A stretch of 64,000 nt of DNA from an uncultured Gammaproteobacteria bacterium (GTDB lineage Bacteria; Patescibacteriota; Patescibacteriia; SG8-24; DYFX01): assembly GCA_964404275.1 (NCBI GenBank), contig CAYOJH010000001.1, positions 41,512 through 105,511 of the forward strand, written 5' to 3'. Within the stretch, counting starts at the first letter, position 1. Every line of letters starts with the position of its first letter. Of this stretch, positions 21,611 through 35,240 are shown piece after piece. The notes under the pieces were generated by a model that made no database searches, was not told the origin of the DNA, and worked only from the letters and a program-made list of their open reading frames with translations. The position numbers and the translations under genes are program-made.

Positions 21611-21640
21611 CAAAAGAAAAGTCCGCGTCGGAACGCGGAC
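21611..21640 (-). terminator. Rho-independent terminator after the membrane metallophosphoesterase gene
   Basis: Hairpin gtccgcgtcggaacgcggac (21621-21640) immediately after the stop at 21640-21642, followed on the minus strand by ttttcttttg. Confidence 0.55.
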
Positions 21641-23193
21641 TAGCGGTGATCCCAGGCCGCTTCTTCGCCGGTCAGGCGGAGAAAGCGCTTGGTCGCCGGT
21701 TCGTAGGACAGGAGGCGCACGTCCACCGAGCCGTCATCGTACTCGCGCACTTCGGCCGGCGTGAACCGGAAGAAGTGGCCGTCCTTGTATTCGGCGGCGA
21801 ATTGCCACCAGAGCAGAAGGAACGTCGCCAGGAAGGCGGCCGGCCAACGGAGCGCGTGCAGAAAGGGCAAGGGCGGCAGCAGGAAGAGCGTGACGGGCAG
21901 CGTCGCATACGCCGCGGTGACGAACGCGGCCTTGAGCGGCGCGTGCGTCCAGTAGTAGCCGATGCGGCGGAAGAACGTCTCGAGCTTCGTCCAGCGCGTG
22001 CGGCACTCGACGGTCGGCTTGGACGCGTTGACCTGCCGGATCGCCGTGCCGGTGTTGTAATAGATCACCTGCGCGCCGGCGACTTCGCAGGTCATCATGC
22101 CTCCGCCGTGCGTATGCCCGGCGATGAGATGGCGCACCTGCGGCCGCTCGGCCAGGAACACGTTGAGTTCCTTTTCGATGCGGTCGGCGTGCAACGTGGT
22201 CGCGATCAAGTCGAGCATCATGCGCGGATTGAACTTCTCGCGCGGCCGGCGGAAGGCGTGGAAGAATTTGTGGCCGATCGCTTCCATCGCCAGCATCGGC
22301 AGCAGCAGCGGCAAGGCGTGCCATTTCCTGGCCACGCCGATGATCCATTCGTCGCCGTGATCGACCCGGCGGCCGATGCCCGGAAACAGCCCGCCTTTCA
22401 GCTTCGTGCCGAGCCCCGCGTTCATGTAGGACGCGGTCGGGACGTTCAGGACGAGTTCCTTGCTCGACCATTGGAAGGCCAGATGTCCGGCGATCCAGCG
22501 GAAGACCAGGAAGAGCATCACGAACGACAGGATCACGCCGAGCGCGACGCCGCCGACCGTGTACGGCACCCAAGCGAAGATCAAGCCCGCGAGCGTGCTG
22601 GCGAGCAGGAGCGAGAGGATCAGCATGAAGGCGATGACCTTCCGGCTGATCTTCACGTCTTCCTTGAACGTGTCCGATGCGGGCGGGTTGGCCGAGAACG
22701 GATCGAACTGGTCGCCGTGGACGATCAGCGCCGTTTCGCCGATCGGAATTTCGCGTCCGAACGTGACGCGCTGGCCTTGCCCGGCCGGCGCGAGAACGGC
22801 GCGGAGCTTCTCCTGGACGCTGGCCCAGGCGAAATCCAGATCGTGGTTCCCGATCAGCATCTCGAGGCTGAAGCGCGGAAACCGCTCGATCAGCCCGCGC
22901 AGGTCCGAGAAATATCGGGGATGCGCGCGCAAGATCGCGTCGGTTTTGGCCAGCGCGGCCGTTTCGGTCGGCACGACGCCGTAGCGCCCTTCGAAGCGGA
23001 CGGCATGATAGTCGAACCAGTCGCCGTCGATGACGTGGCGATAGTCGACGTCGGGCCCGATCAGCTCCAAATGCGTCTCGAGCATCTCGAGATACGCGCG
23101 TTCGTTTTCTTTCGGAAAGTCCTCGAGTTTGGGCATGCCCTCCCCGAGGTGGTGATCGCTCATGACAAGCGTCGCCTTGCGCAGTGTCGGCAT
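21640..23193 (-). CDS. Membrane-embedded calcineurin-like metallophosphoesterase
   Basis: Motifs SDHHLGEG (GDxHG-like), GDWFD, GNHD, then 3-4 TM helices inserted mid-domain, then GHTHGG and a C-terminal TM pair. 517 aa. Confidence 0.7.
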   Translation of the reverse strand: MPTLRKATLVMSDHHLGEGMPKLEDFPKENERAYLEMLETHLELIGPDVDYRHVIDGDWFDYHAVRFEGRYGVVPTETAALAKTDAILRAHPRYFSDLRGLIERFPRFSLEMLIGNHDLDFAWASVQEKLRAVLAPAGQGQRVTFGREIPIGETALIVHGDQFDPFSANPPASDTFKEDVKISRKVIAFMLILSLLLASTLAGLIFAWVPYTVGGVALGVILSFVMLFLVFRWIAGHLAFQWSSKELVLNVPTASYMNAGLGTKLKGGLFPGIGRRVDHGDEWIIGVARKWHALPLLLPMLAMEAIGHKFFHAFRRPREKFNPRMMLDLIATTLHADRIEKELNVFLAERPQVRHLIAGHTHGGGMMTCEVAGAQVIYYNTGTAIRQVNASKPTVECRTRWTKLETFFRRIGYYWTHAPLKAAFVTAAYATLPVTLFLLPPLPFLHALRWPAAFLATFLLLWWQFAAEYKDGHFFRFTPAEVREYDDGSVDVRLLSYEPATKRFLRLTGEEAAWDHR

Positions 23194-23304
23194 GAGTTCC
23201 TCCTCGGTTTATTGGCTGATGTTGGTCTCGAATGACCTGGGCCCACTCCATCAGGAAAAACGGAGTTTGTCAATCACGATTCCGAACGCTACGATGGCAG
23301 GCGT

Positions 23305-27910: not shown

Positions 27911-27946
27911 AGAAAAACCCTGCACCGTACGGTGCAGGGGCGTTTT
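27911..27946 (-). terminator. Rho-independent terminator of the large 716-aa gene; may also act for the convergent plus-strand gene
   Basis: Hairpin ccctgcaccgtacggtgcaggg (27918-27939) with a plus-strand A-run at 27913-27917 (minus-strand T-run) and a weak plus-strand T-run after; stop of the large gene at 27945-27947. Confidence 0.55.
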
Positions 27947-30095
27947 ACCGCTTGAAGCCCTGCTGATCGAGGAAGTCATGGAACGGCTTTTCGCTGTCCC
28001 AGCGCCTCTCTTCGGGCTTGATCTTGTCGTTGCTGTAGAAGGTCGTCCGCGTACCGACGATCCGGCCGCTGATCGAATCGACTTCCAGCACGCCGAAGCC
28101 CTGGTCGACCGTCTTGAGCTTGCTGTGCTCGAACGGGCTGCCGTGCTTCATGGTGGGAATCTGGACGCAGATGCGCTGCCCCAGCTTCTGATCCCACTCT
28201 TCGACGACGACGGCCGTGTGGAAGTTGCCGATGACGACCACCGGACAATCCCGGTAGAGCATCAGCGACTTCTGCGCCGAGCTCGAGATGGTCTCGGAAC
28301 CGCCCATGTGCGGGTGGGTCATGCCCATCAGGAGGCCTGACGGAAGCGTGAACTTGCCGTCTCCGACCGTCTCGATGCGGCTCTCGACCAGGCGCATGAC
28401 CCGGTCGATCGACAGGCCCTTGGAGCCGAGGTGATCTTCGATCCACTGCGTGAGCAGCTCCACGATTTCATGCACCATCGTCACCAGGGGCTTCACGCCG
28501 CTCCGGCCGATCCAACCGCAGTGGTTGCCCGGCACGTAGCGGAACATCGGCAGCATCTGCCGGACCAGCTCCGCGATTTCCTCGCGCTTCTTCGGCGCGG
28601 ACGCCTTCAAAGCGGCGTCGAAGCGCGTCTGGAACACCTTGTGGAGCACGGTGGCGATCATGTGCGCCGCCAGCCGCTCCTGCCGGGTGTTGTCGAAGCC
28701 GAGAATGATCTCGTCCTTCATCATCATGTCGTGGGACGTGCCCTCGACGTGATCGCCGGCGCTGACCAGCATGTTCGCGCCTCGCTCGAGCATGACCCTC
28801 GGCACTTCCTCGCGGAAGTGCTTGTAGTCGGTGTCGCGCGAGCCGGCGTGCATGCAGCAGATGGCCACGACCACGTCCTTCTTCAGCTCGCCTTGCGGCG
28901 TGCCGTAGCGGAGGGAGCGTTGGACCCACTCGAGGTTGAAGTCCCAGCGATCGGACGGCTCGTCGTAGACGAGTCCGGACCAGGTCGCGTACCGCTTGTG
29001 GTCCTTGGTCGCGAGCAACTCCTTCAGCGTCTTGCGAACATCTTCCTTGTCGAGGCCGGTCTCGTCGGCGATGCGCCCGGTCGTCGAACGACCGTGATGG
29101 CGCAGCACTTCCAGACACGCCTTCTGCTTCGACGACGGATCCTGCGGCATGCCGATGAAGGTGCGCTCGCGGCTCAGCAGATCCTTGAAGGAGAAGCTGC
29201 GCATCGTCGGGTTGCGACGAACGTGCTCGATCTCCAGGACCTGGACGCCGACTTGCGTTTCGGCCACGCCGGTGTCGTCGAGACGATGCAGCGCGGGCAC
29301 GGCCACGAAGCCGATCGGCCAGTTGCCTTCGGGCTTCATGATCGAGACGCCGACCGAACCGACGACCTGGAAGTCCACGCGCACGCCCGACGACGTCTGG
29401 CGGCGCTTGTCCTTGATGCGGCGCTGGACCGGCGTCGAGTGATAATCGCCGCGGAGCCAGGCCTGCTTGTCGAGCGTCAGCGCTTCGAGGTTGCGCTCGT
29501 GCGGCTTGCCTTCCCAGAGCGGGAGACGGTCGCCGCCGGGCTTGAGCACCCGGAACTCGCCCTGCTTGCGCAGATCGGCGAGCTTCAGCGCGGTCTCTTC
29601 GCCCATTTCCTTGTCGTAGACGGGAGACGGGATGAAGTACAGCTTGATCGGCCGACCCTTGCCGTCCGTGAAACGCGGCAGCCACTCTTCGAGCGCCTCC
29701 GCCATCGCCTCGGGCGTGAGCGCGTCGATCTTCGCCTTGAGCTGCGCCATCTTGCGGTTCAGCTTGGCGAGCTCCTTCCGGAGCCGCTCGATCGCCTTGG
29801 CATTGACGGCGGTCTCGTCGCTGTTTTCCAGGACGTAGAGCTCGGTCGATACGGCCTTGGCCGACTTCGACGTCTCCTTCGACTGCTTGTGCAGCTTCGA
29901 GAGCTTGTCCTTGACGGCCTTGGCGGCGATGAGGCCGCCGGCCAGGATGACGAACGCGACGTCTTCGGCTTTGAAGCGTTCGGCGGCGAGCTCGAGGAGT
30001 CCCCGCCGAAAACCATCGCCTCCGAAATCGACGCGCGACATGAGTCCGATGCGGACCACCTTGTCGCCGTTACGGTCCTTGATGTTGTCCGACAT
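27945..30095 (-). CDS. Large hypothetical protein (716 aa): coiled-coil N-region, central winged-helix-like segment, C-terminal degenerate calcineurin/Mre11-like metallophosphoesterase domain
   Basis: ATG at 30093-30095 preceded by aggag at 7-nt spacing; the raw ORF M at 30116 is GTG. Motifs: N-terminal RIGLMSRVDFGGDG and VAFVILAGGL (degenerate MPE motifs I/II), a Lys-rich coiled coil at residues about 60-130, LEVLRHHGRSTTGRIADETGLDKEDVRKTLKEL (HTH/wH-like), then CCMHAGSRDTDY, SAGDHVEG, VPGNHCGW and VVIGNFHTAVVVEEW resembling MPE motifs II-V. Confidence 0.65.
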   Translation of the reverse strand: MSDNIKDRNGDKVVRIGLMSRVDFGGDGFRRGLLELAAERFKAEDVAFVILAGGLIAAKAVKDKLSKLHKQSKETSKSAKAVSTELYVLENSDETAVNAKAIERLRKELAKLNRKMAQLKAKIDALTPEAMAEALEEWLPRFTDGKGRPIKLYFIPSPVYDKEMGEETALKLADLRKQGEFRVLKPGGDRLPLWEGKPHERNLEALTLDKQAWLRGDYHSTPVQRRIKDKRRQTSSGVRVDFQVVGSVGVSIMKPEGNWPIGFVAVPALHRLDDTGVAETQVGVQVLEIEHVRRNPTMRSFSFKDLLSRERTFIGMPQDPSSKQKACLEVLRHHGRSTTGRIADETGLDKEDVRKTLKELLATKDHKRYATWSGLVYDEPSDRWDFNLEWVQRSLRYGTPQGELKKDVVVAICCMHAGSRDTDYKHFREEVPRVMLERGANMLVSAGDHVEGTSHDMMMKDEIILGFDNTRQERLAAHMIATVLHKVFQTRFDAALKASAPKKREEIAELVRQMLPMFRYVPGNHCGWIGRSGVKPLVTMVHEIVELLTQWIEDHLGSKGLSIDRVMRLVESRIETVGDGKFTLPSGLLMGMTHPHMGGSETISSSAQKSLMLYRDCPVVVIGNFHTAVVVEEWDQKLGQRICVQIPTMKHGSPFEHSKLKTVDQGFGVLEVDSISGRIVGTRTTFYSNDKIKPEERRWDSEKPFHDFLDQQGFKR

Positions 30096-30263
30096 GACGT
30101 ACTCCTGTTCCGGCACCGCCGGATGCGAACTTTTTTGTGGAAAGAGCGAGCGAACGAAAAGAACTCTTCTTACGAAGAGCCCTTCTCGAACACAAGGAAA
30201 TCGCCCTCTCCTTTTTCAACCATGACGTTCAGTGCAGCCATAGGCATTTCCTTATGCGCCTCT

Positions 30264-30291
30264 AGTATAGAGCCTCAGTCCCCCGGCACAA
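30264..30291 (-). promoter_or_regulatory. Putative sigma-70-type promoter for the large 716-aa gene, giving a leader of about 165 nt
   Basis: On the minus strand: TTGTGC (plus 30286-30291), a 16-nt spacer, then TATACT (plus 30264-30269). Confidence 0.3.
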
Positions 30292-30307
30292 CCCCGGTTA
30301 TCCACAT

Positions 30308-30331
30308 ACAAAAAATGGGCTAAACGCCCAT
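30308..30331 (-). terminator. Rho-independent terminator overlapping the stop codon of the CYTH gene
   Basis: Minus strand atgggcgtttagcccat (stem ATGGGC/GCCCAT, includes the TAG stop) followed by tttttt. Confidence 0.5.
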
Positions 30332-30853
30332 GAGTTTGAAGATCTGCTCCTTGTCGCTCTGCGGCCAATCGCCGAACGGATGCTGCGCCAGATTCTTGTT
30401 CTTGAAGCGCGCGTCCTTCGTGACTTCGCGGCCCAGCCAGGCCGGACGATGCTTGCGCTTCAATCCGTACTTCTTGCGCGGCGTCTCGAGCTCGGCGATC
30501 ACGAGGCCTTCGTTCTCGCCGCGGAAGAAATCGATTTCCCATTTCAGGCCGTCGAAGCCGGCCGGGATTTCGAAGCGTTCCTTCGTGATGATCGAGGCGA
30601 TCCTCGAGGCGTGCTCGCGCAGCCAGCGGCGTCCTTCCGCCAGCGGCATGCGGCCGAGCTCGACCTCGATGTTCTTGTCGCCTTTGAGTTCCAAGACGCC
30701 CTCGCTGCCGATGAGGCGGACCCGGATCTGAGGCGAAAGACAGAGGTAACCCTGTTCGAGTTCCTGTCCGTCCTTCAAAAGACCGCGCGGCATCTCGTTG
30801 ACGCGCACGAGGAATTTTTTTTCGTATTCCTTGCCGGGAACAAGCTGCGCCAT
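30320..30853 (-). CDS. CYTH-domain protein (CyaB/thiamine-triphosphatase family; triphosphate tunnel metalloenzyme)
   Basis: Start MAQLVPGKEYEKKFLV (the ExExK motif at the tunnel entrance), followed by RVRLIG, ELKGDK, ERFEIP and WEIDFF beta-strands with alternating charged residues typical of CYTH. 177 aa with a basic C-terminal tail. The upstream part of the raw ORF is rejected. Confidence 0.75.
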   Translation of the reverse strand: MAQLVPGKEYEKKFLVRVNEMPRGLLKDGQELEQGYLCLSPQIRVRLIGSEGVLELKGDKNIEVELGRMPLAEGRRWLREHASRIASIITKERFEIPAGFDGLKWEIDFFRGENEGLVIAELETPRKKYGLKRKHRPAWLGREVTKDARFKNKNLAQHPFGDWPQSDKEQIFKLMGV

Positions 30854-30880
30854 AGATGCCTCCGCCCGAAATCTAGCACA

Positions 30881-30908
30881 TTGACGAAAGACGTAAAGGG
30901 TGTATCGT
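30881..30908 (+). promoter_or_regulatory. Putative sigma-70-type promoter for the DHH gene in the CYTH-DHH divergent region
   Basis: TTGACG (30881-30886), a 16-nt spacer, then TATCGT (30903-30908). Downstream are a small hairpin gttccgagcggaac and GAGG 10 nt before the ATG at 30945. Confidence 0.3.
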
Positions 30909-30944
30909 GGCTTCGTTCCGAGCGGAACACGAGGTCTTTCATTC

Positions 30945-32048
30945 ATGTCCACGTACATCAGGGAGCTGGAGCTGAAGCCCCAGTCTCTCGATTCTTTCCG
31001 AACCTTCGTAAAAAATTGCGTCGAGCAGAAGGCGCACCTGGCGCTGATCATCGCCCAGATCGATCCCGACGGCGTCGCCTGCGCCAAGCTGATGAAGACC
31101 GTCTTCGAGTATCTCGGTCTCGAAGTGGCCGGCATCTACTACGCCGGCACCGTCGGCCATCGGCAGAACCACAAGATCTTCGACAAGTTCAACCTCTCGG
31201 GCGAGATCACGAAGATCGAGGAGATGCCGGAAGGCTGCCTGCACATGCTGATCGATTCGTCCAAGCTGCCCGACACGCGCCTGGCGAACACGAAGTTTTC
31301 GCTGGAGCATTTCGTCGGCTTCATCGACCACCACCACACCAACGGCAAGGTGCCCGACAAATCTCCGCGCGAACGCTTCATGTGGAACGCCCAGAGCGTG
31401 GCGGCCACGACCCTGGCGTGGATCTTGGCGAAGAAGCTCGAAGTGCCGATCGATGAAACGCTGGCGACCTTGGCGGCGATCGGCATCTATACCGATTCCA
31501 ACCGGCTGGCCTCCGAGTTCGTCAAGGACGAGGACGTCAAAGCCTACGCGCAGGCGCGAGAGCAGGGACAGACGGAGCTGTTCTCCAAGTGCTGCAACTA
31601 TCGCCTGACGAAGCGCTGCCGCCTGATCCTGGCGGAGGTGCTGACGAACTGCGAGGACATCGAGGAGTATCAGATCTCGCATCCGAGCACGCATCTCACC
31701 GAGGAGGACGGCGACGACATCTCGATCTACGCCGACCACCTCCACAAGTACGAAGGGTCGCACACGACCATCGTCTGGGGGCTGTGCGGCTCGGAGATCC
31801 GCTACTCGATCCGCAGCAACGGCGAGGGCGGCAACGTCAACGACGTGCTGCACCGCCTGTTCGGAAAAAGCACCGGCGGCACGAAGCAAGGCGCGGGCGG
31901 CGGACGCTTTCGCCTGCCCGAGCAGATCGCTCCGCTCGAGGAGAGCAGCGAAAAGTTCATCGCGTTCTTCGGCGCCCATCTGCTGCAAAAGCTGACCCAC
32001 CACGCCGGCGTCACGAACGCCGCGGACGGCGGCGCCAAAAAGCCCTAG
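30945..32048 (+). CDS. DHH/DHHA1-family phosphoesterase (NrnA/GdpP-like nanoRNase, pAp phosphatase or cyclic-nucleotide phosphodiesterase family)
   Basis: Motifs LALIIAQIDPDGVACA (DxD), FIDHHHTNG (the DHH motif) and a C-terminal DHHA1-like Gly-rich GAGGGRF. 367 aa. ATG at 30945. Confidence 0.7.
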   Translation: MSTYIRELELKPQSLDSFRTFVKNCVEQKAHLALIIAQIDPDGVACAKLMKTVFEYLGLEVAGIYYAGTVGHRQNHKIFDKFNLSGEITKIEEMPEGCLHMLIDSSKLPDTRLANTKFSLEHFVGFIDHHHTNGKVPDKSPRERFMWNAQSVAATTLAWILAKKLEVPIDETLATLAAIGIYTDSNRLASEFVKDEDVKAYAQAREQGQTELFSKCCNYRLTKRCRLILAEVLTNCEDIEEYQISHPSTHLTEEDGDDISIYADHLHKYEGSHTTIVWGLCGSEIRYSIRSNGEGGNVNDVLHRLFGKSTGGTKQGAGGGRFRLPEQIAPLEESSEKFIAFFGAHLLQKLTHHAGVTNAADGGAKKP

Positions 32049-34689: not shown

Positions 34690-34941
34690 TCAGACGTTCT
34701 GGAAATAGCCGCGGATGATGGCGACGACTTCGCCGCAGGCGTCGGGCAGGTCGCGGCCGGCGCCCCAGCCCTTGATCGCCCGGTAGTCTTCCTTCCGGGC
34801 GCTGCGCAGCGTGACGACCACCCGCTTATCGAGGTCGATCGCGTTGCGGACGATGTCGCTGAAGCCGCGGTCGGAGCCGTCCCAGGCGTCGATCTGGCGA
34901 ATGAGATCTTCCTTGAGCCGCTTGAGCGCCTCGGCGTCCAT
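34690..34941 (-). CDS. Small hypothetical protein (83 aa)
   Basis: ORF followed by a clean terminator; abuts the 98-aa ORF (3-nt gap), suggesting co-transcription. Confidence 0.4.
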   Translation of the reverse strand: MDAEALKRLKEDLIRQIDAWDGSDRGFSDIVRNAIDLDKRVVVTLRSARKEDYRAIKGWGAGRDLPDACGEVVAIIRGYFQNV

Positions 34942-34943
34942 GG

Positions 34944-35240
34944 CTAAGGCCCTTTCAACAGGTCCGCGAAGTGCGTGCGGAGCATGCGGACGGCCTTGCG
35001 CCGCATGAGCGGGGCGGGGCTGACCGCGCCGCAGGCCCAGTTCGCGAAGAGGGTCATCTCGCCCTGCATGTACGTGCCGACGACGATCCCGCAGAGCGCG
35101 GTGTAGTGCTTCTTCTCGGGATCCGGAAGATCAAGCACGGCGGCGATCAGTTTGGAAAAATCGTCCGGACATTCGGCCGGACGGCCTTCCTCGAGCGCGT
35201 AACGGAGCTTCTGCGTCAGGTCGAGACTGCGTTCGGCCAT
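34944..35240 (-). CDS. Small hypothetical protein (98 aa)
   Basis: ORF co-directional with and immediately downstream of the CNNM/CBS gene; no motif. Confidence 0.4.
   Translation of the reverse strand: MAERSLDLTQKLRYALEEGRPAECPDDFSKLIAAVLDLPDPEKKHYTALCGIVVGTYMQGEMTLFANWACGAVSPAPLMRRKAVRMLRTHFADLLKGP

Follow-up and report, generated by a model that had tools for sequence, protein, structure and literature searches.

We analysed three adjacent genes in a 64,000-nucleotide stretch of contig CAYOJH010000001.1 (assembly GCA_964404275.1, positions 41,512 to 105,511 of the forward strand; hereafter, the window), which encode a 716-residue protein with metallophosphoesterase (MPE) folds, a stand-alone CYTH protein and a DHH/DHHA1 protein. 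An earlier note, made from the sequence alone, had likened this trio to a nucleotide-based signalling or defence module and had named three unrelated housekeeping genes as the sober alternative. Our best explanation, to which we assign a probability of roughly 0.6, is that, in this Patescibacteria (Paceibacteria-like) chromosome, the three genes are transcribed independently of one another and that the large protein is probably a regulated nucleic-acid phosphodiesterase; lineage-specific gene order, and not function, would have brought the trio together. The CYTH and DHH genes belong to known families, within which both are divergent. The 716-residue protein is, in its architecture and its active site, a new variant of the MPE superfamily and, judged by the sequence databases searched, the founding member of an uncharacterised family that is confined to Patescibacteria.

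One inactive and one conserved metallophosphoesterase domain in the 716-residue protein

The gene for the 716-residue protein is an open reading frame (ORF) at 27945-30095 on the minus strand, with its start at AGGAG-N6-ATG (30095). No model in Pfam, NCBIfam or PADLOC matched the catalytic parts of the protein significantly. An AlphaFold2 model based on a 24-sequence alignment (pLDDT 90, pTM 0.87) has the architecture MPE - winged helix - MPE and contains no OB fold. In this model, the N-terminal domain (residues ~10-305; 29181-30068, minus strand) has an MPE fold but no metal ligands: the corresponding positions read S/R-x-D, G-G and G-S-x-G, there is no conserved His, and this copy is a pseudo-enzyme MPE domain. 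A Lys-rich antiparallel coiled coil (residues 58-138; 29682-29924, minus strand; modeled helices 58-90, 99-124 and 128-138) interrupts the N-terminal domain after the motif-II and before the motif-III position; it is variable in length across the family and almost missing from the members P0029 and P0030. A winged helix of Zalpha-like topology (residues ~318-395; 28911-29144, minus strand) follows, and the C-terminal MPE domain (residues ~400-700; 27996-28898, minus strand) is defined by its conserved motifs and by matches of relatives to PF00149. The earlier note had proposed most of this outline, and the structural model bears out its degenerate N-terminal MPE, its Lys-rich coiled coil (helices 58-90 and 99-124) and its winged-helix-like segment, while the invariant motifs and the sub-threshold PF00149 matches of relatives described below do the same for its C-terminal MPE with non-canonical residues. 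Z-DNA binding was considered from the Zalpha likeness and rejected, as by eye Arg and Lys stand at the recognition-helix positions where ADAR1 has Asn and Tyr.

The canonical MPE motifs are, in order, D-x-H, G-D, G-N-H-[DE], H and G-H-x-H. The C-terminal domain has a complete but non-canonical version of this ligand set, specifically C414-x-H416, G447-D448, G523-N524-H525-[CD], H594 and N624-x-H626, in which the first Asp of motif I is substituted by Cys and the first His of motif V by Asn. C414, H416, G447, D448, G452, G523, N524, H525 and H594 are invariant in 134 of 134 family representatives, each of which stands for one 50%-identity cluster, and N624 and H626 are present in 133 of them. 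The modelled secondary structure has every motif at a strand's C-terminal end, as expected of the four-layer alpha/beta sandwich of MPE enzymes. PF00149 gave no match to the 716-residue protein itself at E<=1; among isolated C-terminal domains of relatives, 11 of 28 matched it below threshold (best E 7.4e-5), and no other family was matched consistently.

In a comparison of the two MPE domains with hhalign, the alignment was weak (P=0.007) but collinear over ~255 columns and had the motifs in register (R21-x-D23 with C414-x-H416, G53-G54 with G447-D448, and S247-x-G249 with N624-x-H626). Moreover, both copies have a helical insertion at the same place. The common register and the shared insertion suggest an internal duplication that was followed by inactivation of the N-terminal copy. 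We propose that the family would have arisen by duplication of an MPE domain that carried the helical insertion, that the N-terminal copy would have lost its metal ligands and retained the long basic coiled coil, and that the C-terminal copy would have retained a strictly conserved binuclear-type site, with Cys for the first Asp and Asn for the first His of motif V, the Zalpha-like winged helix joining the two copies.

Based on a Foldseek comparison of the whole model with the PDB, the closest structure is DP1, the small subunit of PolD (E 1.6e-7), followed by Mre11, the Pol alpha B-subunit and SbcD; MJ0936, YfcE, Ap4A hydrolase, LpxH and Rv0805 are also among the top structural neighbors. A profile of the whole family matched PDB sequences through the winged helix only. 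The protein also contains a conserved basic helix, STPVQRRIKDKRRQTSS. A nucleic acid is the substrate suggested by the winged helix, the basic coiled coil, this basic helix and the helix-turn-helix (HTH)-like extensions of longer family members, as well as by the fold matches to DP1, B-subunits, Mre11 and SbcD, the occasional adjacency to uvrD and the DnaA-box 9-mer next to the promoter (see below). Our working hypothesis is that the 716-residue protein would be a metal-dependent nucleic-acid phosphodiesterase, most likely a DNA- or RNA-end nuclease, in which the dead copy and the winged helix may be an intramolecular stand-in for the second subunit and the DNA-binding parts of Mre11/SbcD- or DP1-type enzymes. 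Taken on its own, the assignment as a nuclease or nucleic-acid phosphodiesterase is tentative, and we give it somewhat less than even odds.

A family of Patescibacteria

A family-profile search of 1.84 billion representatives returned 209 proteins at E<=1e-3, and nearly all full-length members share the same architecture from end to end. All source names returned with these proteins were 'hypothetical protein' except for one JGI label, 'predicted phosphodiesterase'. The G+C content of the window is 63%, and the nearest relatives of all three proteins come from metagenome-assembled genomes labelled Patescibacteria, Uhrbacteria, Paceibacter and Yanofskybacteria. A scan of viral contigs for the 716-residue family revealed no relatives, and PHROGs held nothing for this protein or for the DHH protein.

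Eight members of 850-920 residues (P0194, P0201, P0207, P0212, P0226, P0231, P0238 and P0245) have N-terminal extensions of 150-300 residues. A Pfam scan of these extensions was without match; by eye, they resemble repeated small HTH modules, e.g. '...LGRSQSSIEKARNYHGLKKKR...'. We also observed that nine of the loci encoding family members (L002, L003, L006, L007, L010, L019, L022, L024 and L025) are in records titled 'uncultured Gammaproteobacteria' or 'uncultured Candidatus Saccharibacteria' even though the locus is of the Patescibacteria type; these labels look wrong.

Three predicted transcription units in a core-gene context

Start codons were picked from the sequence. The gene for the 177-residue stand-alone, NeuTTM-like CYTH protein, assigned by ORF call and homology, occupies 30320-30853 on the minus strand and starts at GGAGG-N6-ATG (30853). 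The gene for the 367-residue divergent stand-alone DHH/DHHA1 phosphoesterase, which is NrnA/TmPDE-like and was assigned in the same way, occupies 30945-32048 on the plus strand, and its ATG at 30945 is consistent with the N-termini of homologues. The three ORFs are thus located where the earlier note had placed them, and the peptide motifs that it quoted are all present in the translations.

A scan for intrinsic terminators identified a terminator-like hairpin with a T run just 3' of the 716-residue gene (27918-27939, minus strand), which has a 9-bp stem with 7 GC pairs and is followed by TTTTTCTTTT. The same scan recovered the terminator that had been described as overlapping the CYTH stop codon (30331-30315); this hairpin (30315-30331, minus strand) is kept in the 9 loci examined for the leader (see below). 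The CYTH and DHH genes diverge from a 91-bp intergenic region (30854-30944), in which a consensus scan recovered the sigma-70-like element TTGACG-N16-TATCGT (30881-30908, plus strand), also described previously; in the 5 kb scanned, 1 such site was found and 0.8 were expected by chance. The terminators together with the divergent orientation support that the genes are three separate transcription units. They are surrounded by core genes, and the flanks include metK, uvrD, yceG and corC.

The trio is confined to one syntenic clade

Gene order was compared at 33 loci that were obtained from a scan of one genome per species, using tblastn with all window proteins together with CYTH and DHH hidden Markov models (HMMs). 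CYTH adjoins the 716-residue gene in L001, L002, L004-L006 and L032 and, in addition to these, in L034 and L035; DHH was found beside CYTH wherever the contig reaches (not L004; L035 unconfirmed). In all trio loci, the 716-residue protein is at least ~66% identical to that of the window, and the whole 15-20 kb are collinear (DUF3048, C39-like peptidase, metK, ..., uvrD, corC, yceG). At the loci with 35-46% identity (L008, L009, L011, L012, L020 and L029), metK and uvrD flank the large gene without CYTH or DHH; at L012 and L029, both flanking genes are its immediate neighbors. In the Yanofsky-, Nealson- and Giovannonibacteria-type loci, metK and uvrD are also gone, and the neighbors are dCMP/cytidine deaminases, IMPDH, a ClpX-like ATPase, YceG, FtsW, an AsnS/AspS-type synthetase and L10. 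Among the 29 loci with usable flanks, metK is a neighbor in 13 and uvrD in 8, and clustering of the neighbors at these loci gave no conserved partner besides these two, many apparent neighbor clusters being antisense shadows of real genes. Because the trio occurs only in the syntenic clade, we suggest that the CYTH-DHH pair was inserted between uvrD and the large gene in this clade only.

At several loci, genes of the dCMP/cytidine-deaminase family or IMPDH flank the large gene (L013 8943-9842 and 12108-12788, on both sides; L017 4447-5037; L027 4502-5995; L028 8461-9891), which gives these surroundings in Yanofsky-, Nealson- and Giovannonibacteria-type genomes a flavor of nucleotide metabolism.

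A conserved leader precedes the 716-residue gene

The 225 nt between CYTH and the 716-residue gene are unusually conserved in 9 distinct loci (the window, L001, L002, L004-L006, L032, L034 and L035), the proteins of which differ by 25-50%. On the gene strand, the elements are arranged in the order CYTH terminator, DnaA-box 9-mer, promoter, AAGGAA, an ATG with a short frame, and a hairpin. The 9-mer TTATCCACA (TGTGGATAA on the gene strand; 30298-30306, plus strand) is a perfect match to the DnaA-box consensus and lies upstream of the -35 element at a distance of 6 nt. It has no second perfect copy in the 64-kb window, is the sole perfect box in every clade locus that retains the upstream region, and is invariant in the 9 loci despite flanking indels, one of which (10 nt) is immediately adjacent; DnaA would presumably bind here. 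The promoter-like element of the 716-residue gene, TTGTGC-N16-TATACT (30264-30291, minus strand), lies below the threshold of the consensus scan and was missed by it; across the 9 loci, however, its -10 hexamer TATACT is invariant and its -35 region nearly so, and this conservation supports the earlier proposal that the gene has a promoter of its own.

Downstream of this element, RNAalifold identified a conserved structured leader (30153-30262, minus strand) composed of a stem, P1, and a terminator-like hairpin. In P1 (11 bp), 30246-30256 pairs with 30191-30201, and a Shine-Dalgarno-like AAGGAA element pairs with TTTCCTT; the hairpin (30155-30188; -14 to -26 kcal/mol) is followed by the T run TTCTTTTCG. 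For both helices, 92% of the cells are paired compared with 50-63% in slid-partner controls, and 6 pairs have changes on both sides. An invariant ATG 6 nt after AAGGAA begins a short upstream ORF (uORF) of 23 codons (30170-30241, minus strand), which is open over 22-26 codons in 9/9 loci and has its stop in or beside the hairpin loop (loop or 3' arm). This arrangement would allow translation-dependent attenuation at the leader, with possible ribosome-dependent read-through of the terminator. Expression in the clade thus appears to be controlled, presumably by way of the DnaA-box 9-mer next to the promoter and of the short frame, which extends into the terminator hairpin.

A covariance model of the leader, used as a regulon search, found only the orthologous site in the close clade and no further copies. 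At the gathering threshold, Rfam matched only tRNAs in the window, and at E<=10 only terminator-like fragments in the leader. Outside the clade, the regions upstream of the large gene are short and without the leader element, and the DnaA-box 9-mer was matched upstream of distant homologues only by unconvincing one-mismatch sites at 4 loci. The leader was also considered as a riboswitch, a reading that we rejected because sequence conservation is poor in the 44-nt loop that P1 encloses.

The CYTH protein resembles an inorganic triphosphatase

A Pfam search with the CYTH protein itself was without match, as it is below the PF01928 threshold. Its residues 9-156 align with NeuTTM of Nitrosomonas europaea (NE1496; PDB 2fbl/3typ; E=2e-7), and a PDB search at E<=10 matched NeuTTM chains only and no CyaB. 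Database searches placed the protein in a tight Patescibacteria clade at 46-73% identity, beyond which there are hundreds of ~157-residue stand-alone CYTH homologues with PF01928 at 33-42% identity; PF01928 is carried by >90 of the more distant homologues listed. The NeuTTM match and the presence of PF01928 in homologues confirm that this is a CYTH domain, as had been called before. The ExExK motif is EYEKK (residues 9-13), and in the PDB alignment the equivalents of NeuTTM Tyr-28 (LEQGYL) and Lys-52 (LELKG) are kept. These two residues are the proposed catalytic dyad of NeuTTM, a specific inorganic triphosphatase (PMC3440374), and true CyaB-type cyclases form a small cluster apart from the triphosphatases (PMC8233210). 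Because NeuTTM was matched, the dyad is kept and CyaB was not matched, triphosphate hydrolysis, and not signal synthesis, is the most likely activity. We suggest that the gene product is most likely a NeuTTM-type triphosphate-tunnel metalloenzyme, not a cyclase, and that its substrate would be inorganic triphosphate or a similar triphosphate; a class IV adenylate cyclase (CyaB) was rejected on the grounds that only NeuTTM was matched and that its Tyr/Lys dyad is kept.

Separately, the CYTH protein matched phrog_6660, a phage family of unknown function (E=4e-11), suggesting that NeuTTM-like CYTH proteins are also present in phages. A different CYTH gene (HMM E=1.7e-21) was detected at L011 3014-3736, ~6 kb upstream of the 716-residue homologue with other genes between.

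A divergent DHH/DHHA1 phosphoesterase in a slot with two gene types

The DHH protein scored below the curated Pfam cut-offs for both of its domains (PF01368, 20.9 vs 28.1 bits; PF02272, 20.1 vs 25.9 bits). Its best solved relative is the Thermotoga DHH/DHHA1 phosphodiesterase TmPDE/TM1595 (PDB 5o1u; E=4e-6), and a weak NCBIfam match was obtained to a Mn-dependent pyrophosphatase (E=0.01). A word search retrieved 7 close homologues. In an alignment of 9 homologues, DHH motifs I-IV are invariant (D40-P-D42, D104, D128-H-H130/131 and D184) and the GGGH motif of DHHA1 is replaced by GGGR or GGAR. The DHH/DHHA1 domains recognized from the sequence at the outset are therefore borne out by the TM1595 match and the intact DHH motifs. 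With these motifs intact and GGGH altered, the catalytic core looks active and the substrate-binding motif changed. The gene product is probably an active two-domain phosphoesterase of the NrnA/TmPDE type, whose substrate would be short oligonucleotides, pAp or a short phosphate chain.

In L001 (2-955), L002 (7802-8941) and L006 (8061-9200), the DHH protein in the same slot is only 33-35% identical to the window copy; at these same loci, MetK and UvrD are 80-91%, the CYTH protein 51-66% and the 716-residue protein 66-77% identical. DHH proteins of the other type (P0152-P0157) have 55-83% identity to that of the window. Thus, two DHH types occur in one slot, and their distribution is out of step with the similarity of the flanking genes. 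A divergence so different from that of the flanks suggests gene replacement or very fast evolution.

Other genes of the window

Two small ORFs lie between uvrD and corC (34690-34941, minus strand, 83 residues; 34944-35240, minus strand, 98 residues). They have no Pfam match, are kept in L006 (43% and 32% identity, respectively) and were also predicted as genes in L034. An additional, unrelated MPE-like gene is located ~4.7 kb from the trio (21640-23208, minus strand); it encodes 522 residues with an N-terminal 'SDHHLG', scores 20.8 bits against the PF00149 cut-off of 21.5, and is kept in syntenic relatives (L034 from 15946).

Alternative explanations

One alternative is that the three genes form a single signalling or defence unit, with the CYTH protein as the source of a signal, the DHH protein as the enzyme that breaks it down and the winged-helix/MPE protein as the effector. 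The genes are adjacent, all are predicted to act on phosphate esters or anhydrides, and the trio is kept in ~8 related genomes; this co-occurrence, however, is found only amid full synteny and is absent from the loci of all more distant homologues, which in substance undoes the expectation that the trio would stay together across related genomes. The CYTH protein is of the NeuTTM and not the CyaB type, the genes are separate units in a core-gene context, there is no nucleotide sensor domain, and in other phyla neither a DHH nor an MPE gene adjoins the NeuTTM-like CYTH gene (3/3 loci). A PADLOC search with the three proteins gave no defence match, only coiled-coil noise at E>0.05, and NCBIfam gave no meaningful match for them. 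What characterizes CBASS, Pycsar or type III CRISPR-like systems, namely a cyclase together with effector or sensor families, a conserved operon and a variable island, was not found here. A single unit is accordingly very improbable, unrelated housekeeping genes are the better reading of the trio, and we consider it likely that no three-gene module exists. A more limited version is that CYTH and DHH alone are paired for a two-step disposal of polyphosphate or triphosphate from their common 91-bp control region, by a route PPPi -> PPi -> Pi or from triphosphate ends to oligonucleotides. The pair is head-to-head wherever both flanks are on the contig (L001, L002, L005, L006, L032, L034 and probably L035), inorganic triphosphatases or exopolyphosphatases are known from both superfamilies (NeuTTM in one and prune among the DHH proteins; PMC3440374), and the weak pyrophosphatase match of the DHH protein points in the same direction. 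We nevertheless find this pairing doubtful, because it is limited to one syntenic clade and the 3 NeuTTM-like CYTH genes elsewhere have no DHH neighbor, because the two DHH types in the slot (33% vs 55-83%) suggest replacement and not co-evolution with CYTH, and because the DHH protein ends in a DHHA1 domain, where pyrophosphatases have DHHA2.

For the large protein, the question is the substrate. It could be a small-molecule phosphodiesterase or phosphatase (for 2',3'-cNMP, Ap4A, cNMP or nucleotide salvage) and not a nuclease, with the winged helix being part of a DNA-bound regulator or making protein contacts only. MJ0936, YfcE, Ap4A hydrolase, LpxH and Rv0805, all among its structural neighbors, are small-molecule or generic phosphodiesterases, and genes for dCMP deaminase, IMPDH, a HAD hydrolase and a 5'-nucleotidase-like protein are neighbors at distant loci, as CYTH and DHH are in this clade. 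The large size, the basic coiled coil, the winged helix, the HTH-like extensions seen by eye in some members and the top fold matches (DP1, B-subunits, Mre11 and SbcD) point instead to a macromolecule, and the DnaA-box 9-mer to DNA metabolism; on balance, we regard a small-molecule enzyme as rather unlikely. Still less probable, and by a wide step, is a bacterial counterpart of Dbr1, i.e. a 2'-5' phosphodiesterase whose substrates would be branched RNA or DNA, group II intron lariats among them. Here, the invariant Cys-x-His of motif I (134/134), a feature that distinguishes Dbr1 (PMC5113202), stands in favor, whereas closest kinship to Dbr1, an H-x-H motif V, a lariat-recognition loop and the Dbr1 C-terminal domain were all not found in the 716-residue protein.

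Several observations weigh against our preferred reading of a regulated nucleic-acid phosphodiesterase. The whole-protein fold alignments appear to be those of the N-terminal domain, i.e. the inactive copy dominates the structural ranking, and a profile of the C-terminal domain had no match to PDB sequences even at E<=10, indicating that this domain is very divergent. By our reading of its sequence against ADAR1, the winged helix lacks the Asn and Tyr that contact Z-DNA in true Zalpha domains. No consistent DNA-repair partner is present, and the adjacency to uvrD (8/29) may be inherited synteny. With respect to regulation, the DnaA-box 9-mer is conserved only in the close clade, and the uORF peptide is poorly conserved, shows no third-position bias and has its conserved residues where the RNA stems lie, making translation of the uORF plausible but inferred. 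Finally, the substrate of the 716-residue protein may be a small molecule.

Implications

With the module reading falling away, a false lead is removed, and a well-defined uncharacterised family remains (~200 cluster representatives) in Patescibacteria, a group in which little is understood of core DNA and RNA metabolism. The combination of a duplicated MPE with one inactivated copy, a strict Cys-x-His and a Zalpha-like winged helix is new, and Cys-x-His has so far been regarded as a signature of eukaryotic Dbr1. Should the protein prove to be a nuclease, it would have replaced a standard repair or replication exonuclease in this lineage and would provide a second, independent case of a thiolate ligand in a binuclear phosphoesterase. 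The leader, with its DnaA-box 9-mer, uORF and terminator, would be one of few candidate regulatory elements in these organisms. The most far-reaching possibility, which we consider speculative and unlikely as a whole, is that the protein represents a new Patescibacteria-specific class of nucleic-acid-processing MPE, a single-chain 'pseudo-dimer' of dead copy, winged helix and live copy with a Dbr1-like Cys-x-His site, which in reduced genomes would take the place of an absent end-processing or proofreading nuclease (Mre11/SbcD- or DP1-like) or serve as a debranching-type enzyme, and that in this clade would be wired to the replication initiator through the DnaA box and to translation through the leader attenuator.

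Comparison with known systems

The CYTH protein resembles NeuTTM in its full-length alignment, its ExExK motif, the equivalents of Tyr-28 and Lys-52, its comparable size and its stand-alone nature, and differs in being ~20 residues longer at the C-terminus and only ~30% identical. The DHH protein shares its two-domain architecture, its length and DHH motifs I-IV with TmPDE (TM1595) and NrnA, from which it is set apart by GGGR/GGAR in place of GGGH, by its sub-threshold Pfam scores and by the very fast evolution or replacement of its gene, for which identity is 33% between genomes that share 65-90% in their other genes.

The 716-residue protein has the PDE/MPE domain in common with DP1 and the B-subunits (Pol alpha B, Pol delta p50 and Pol epsilon subunit 2), at 10-16% identity. 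In contrast to these archaeal or eukaryotic proteins, it is bacterial (Patescibacteria), lacks the preceding OB fold and combines two MPE copies and a winged helix in one chain; no polymerase partner gene lies beside its gene in the window or among the scanned neighbors at distant loci. Compared with Mre11 and SbcD, motif I is Cys-x-His and motif V Asn-x-His, and a capping domain was not recognised. SbcD/Mre11 models in Pfam and NCBIfam did not match the protein, and no Rad50/SbcC-type SMC-like ATPase is encoded among the annotated neighbors in the window or the ~20 immediate neighbors at distant loci. MJ0936, YfcE and Vps29 (Metallophos_2-type), of which MJ0936 and YfcE are phosphodiesterases according to their PDB titles, are single-domain proteins of ~170 residues, whereas the copy that resembles them in the 716-residue protein is without any His ligand.

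The likeness to Dbr1 consists in Cys-x-His in place of Asp-x-His as the first metal-binding motif. Dbr1 is distinguished by this motif from the other MPE clades and requires the Cys, C11D keeping 7% activity (PMC5113202). Dbr1 is a eukaryotic protein with a single MPE domain and a specific C-terminal domain; the 716-residue protein has no detectable sequence relationship to it beyond the superfamily motifs, did not match Dbr1 chains and has N-x-H as motif V. Because Cys-x-His is shared and the other features of Dbr1 are not, we suggest that the two active sites reflect convergence or, at most, a distant link.

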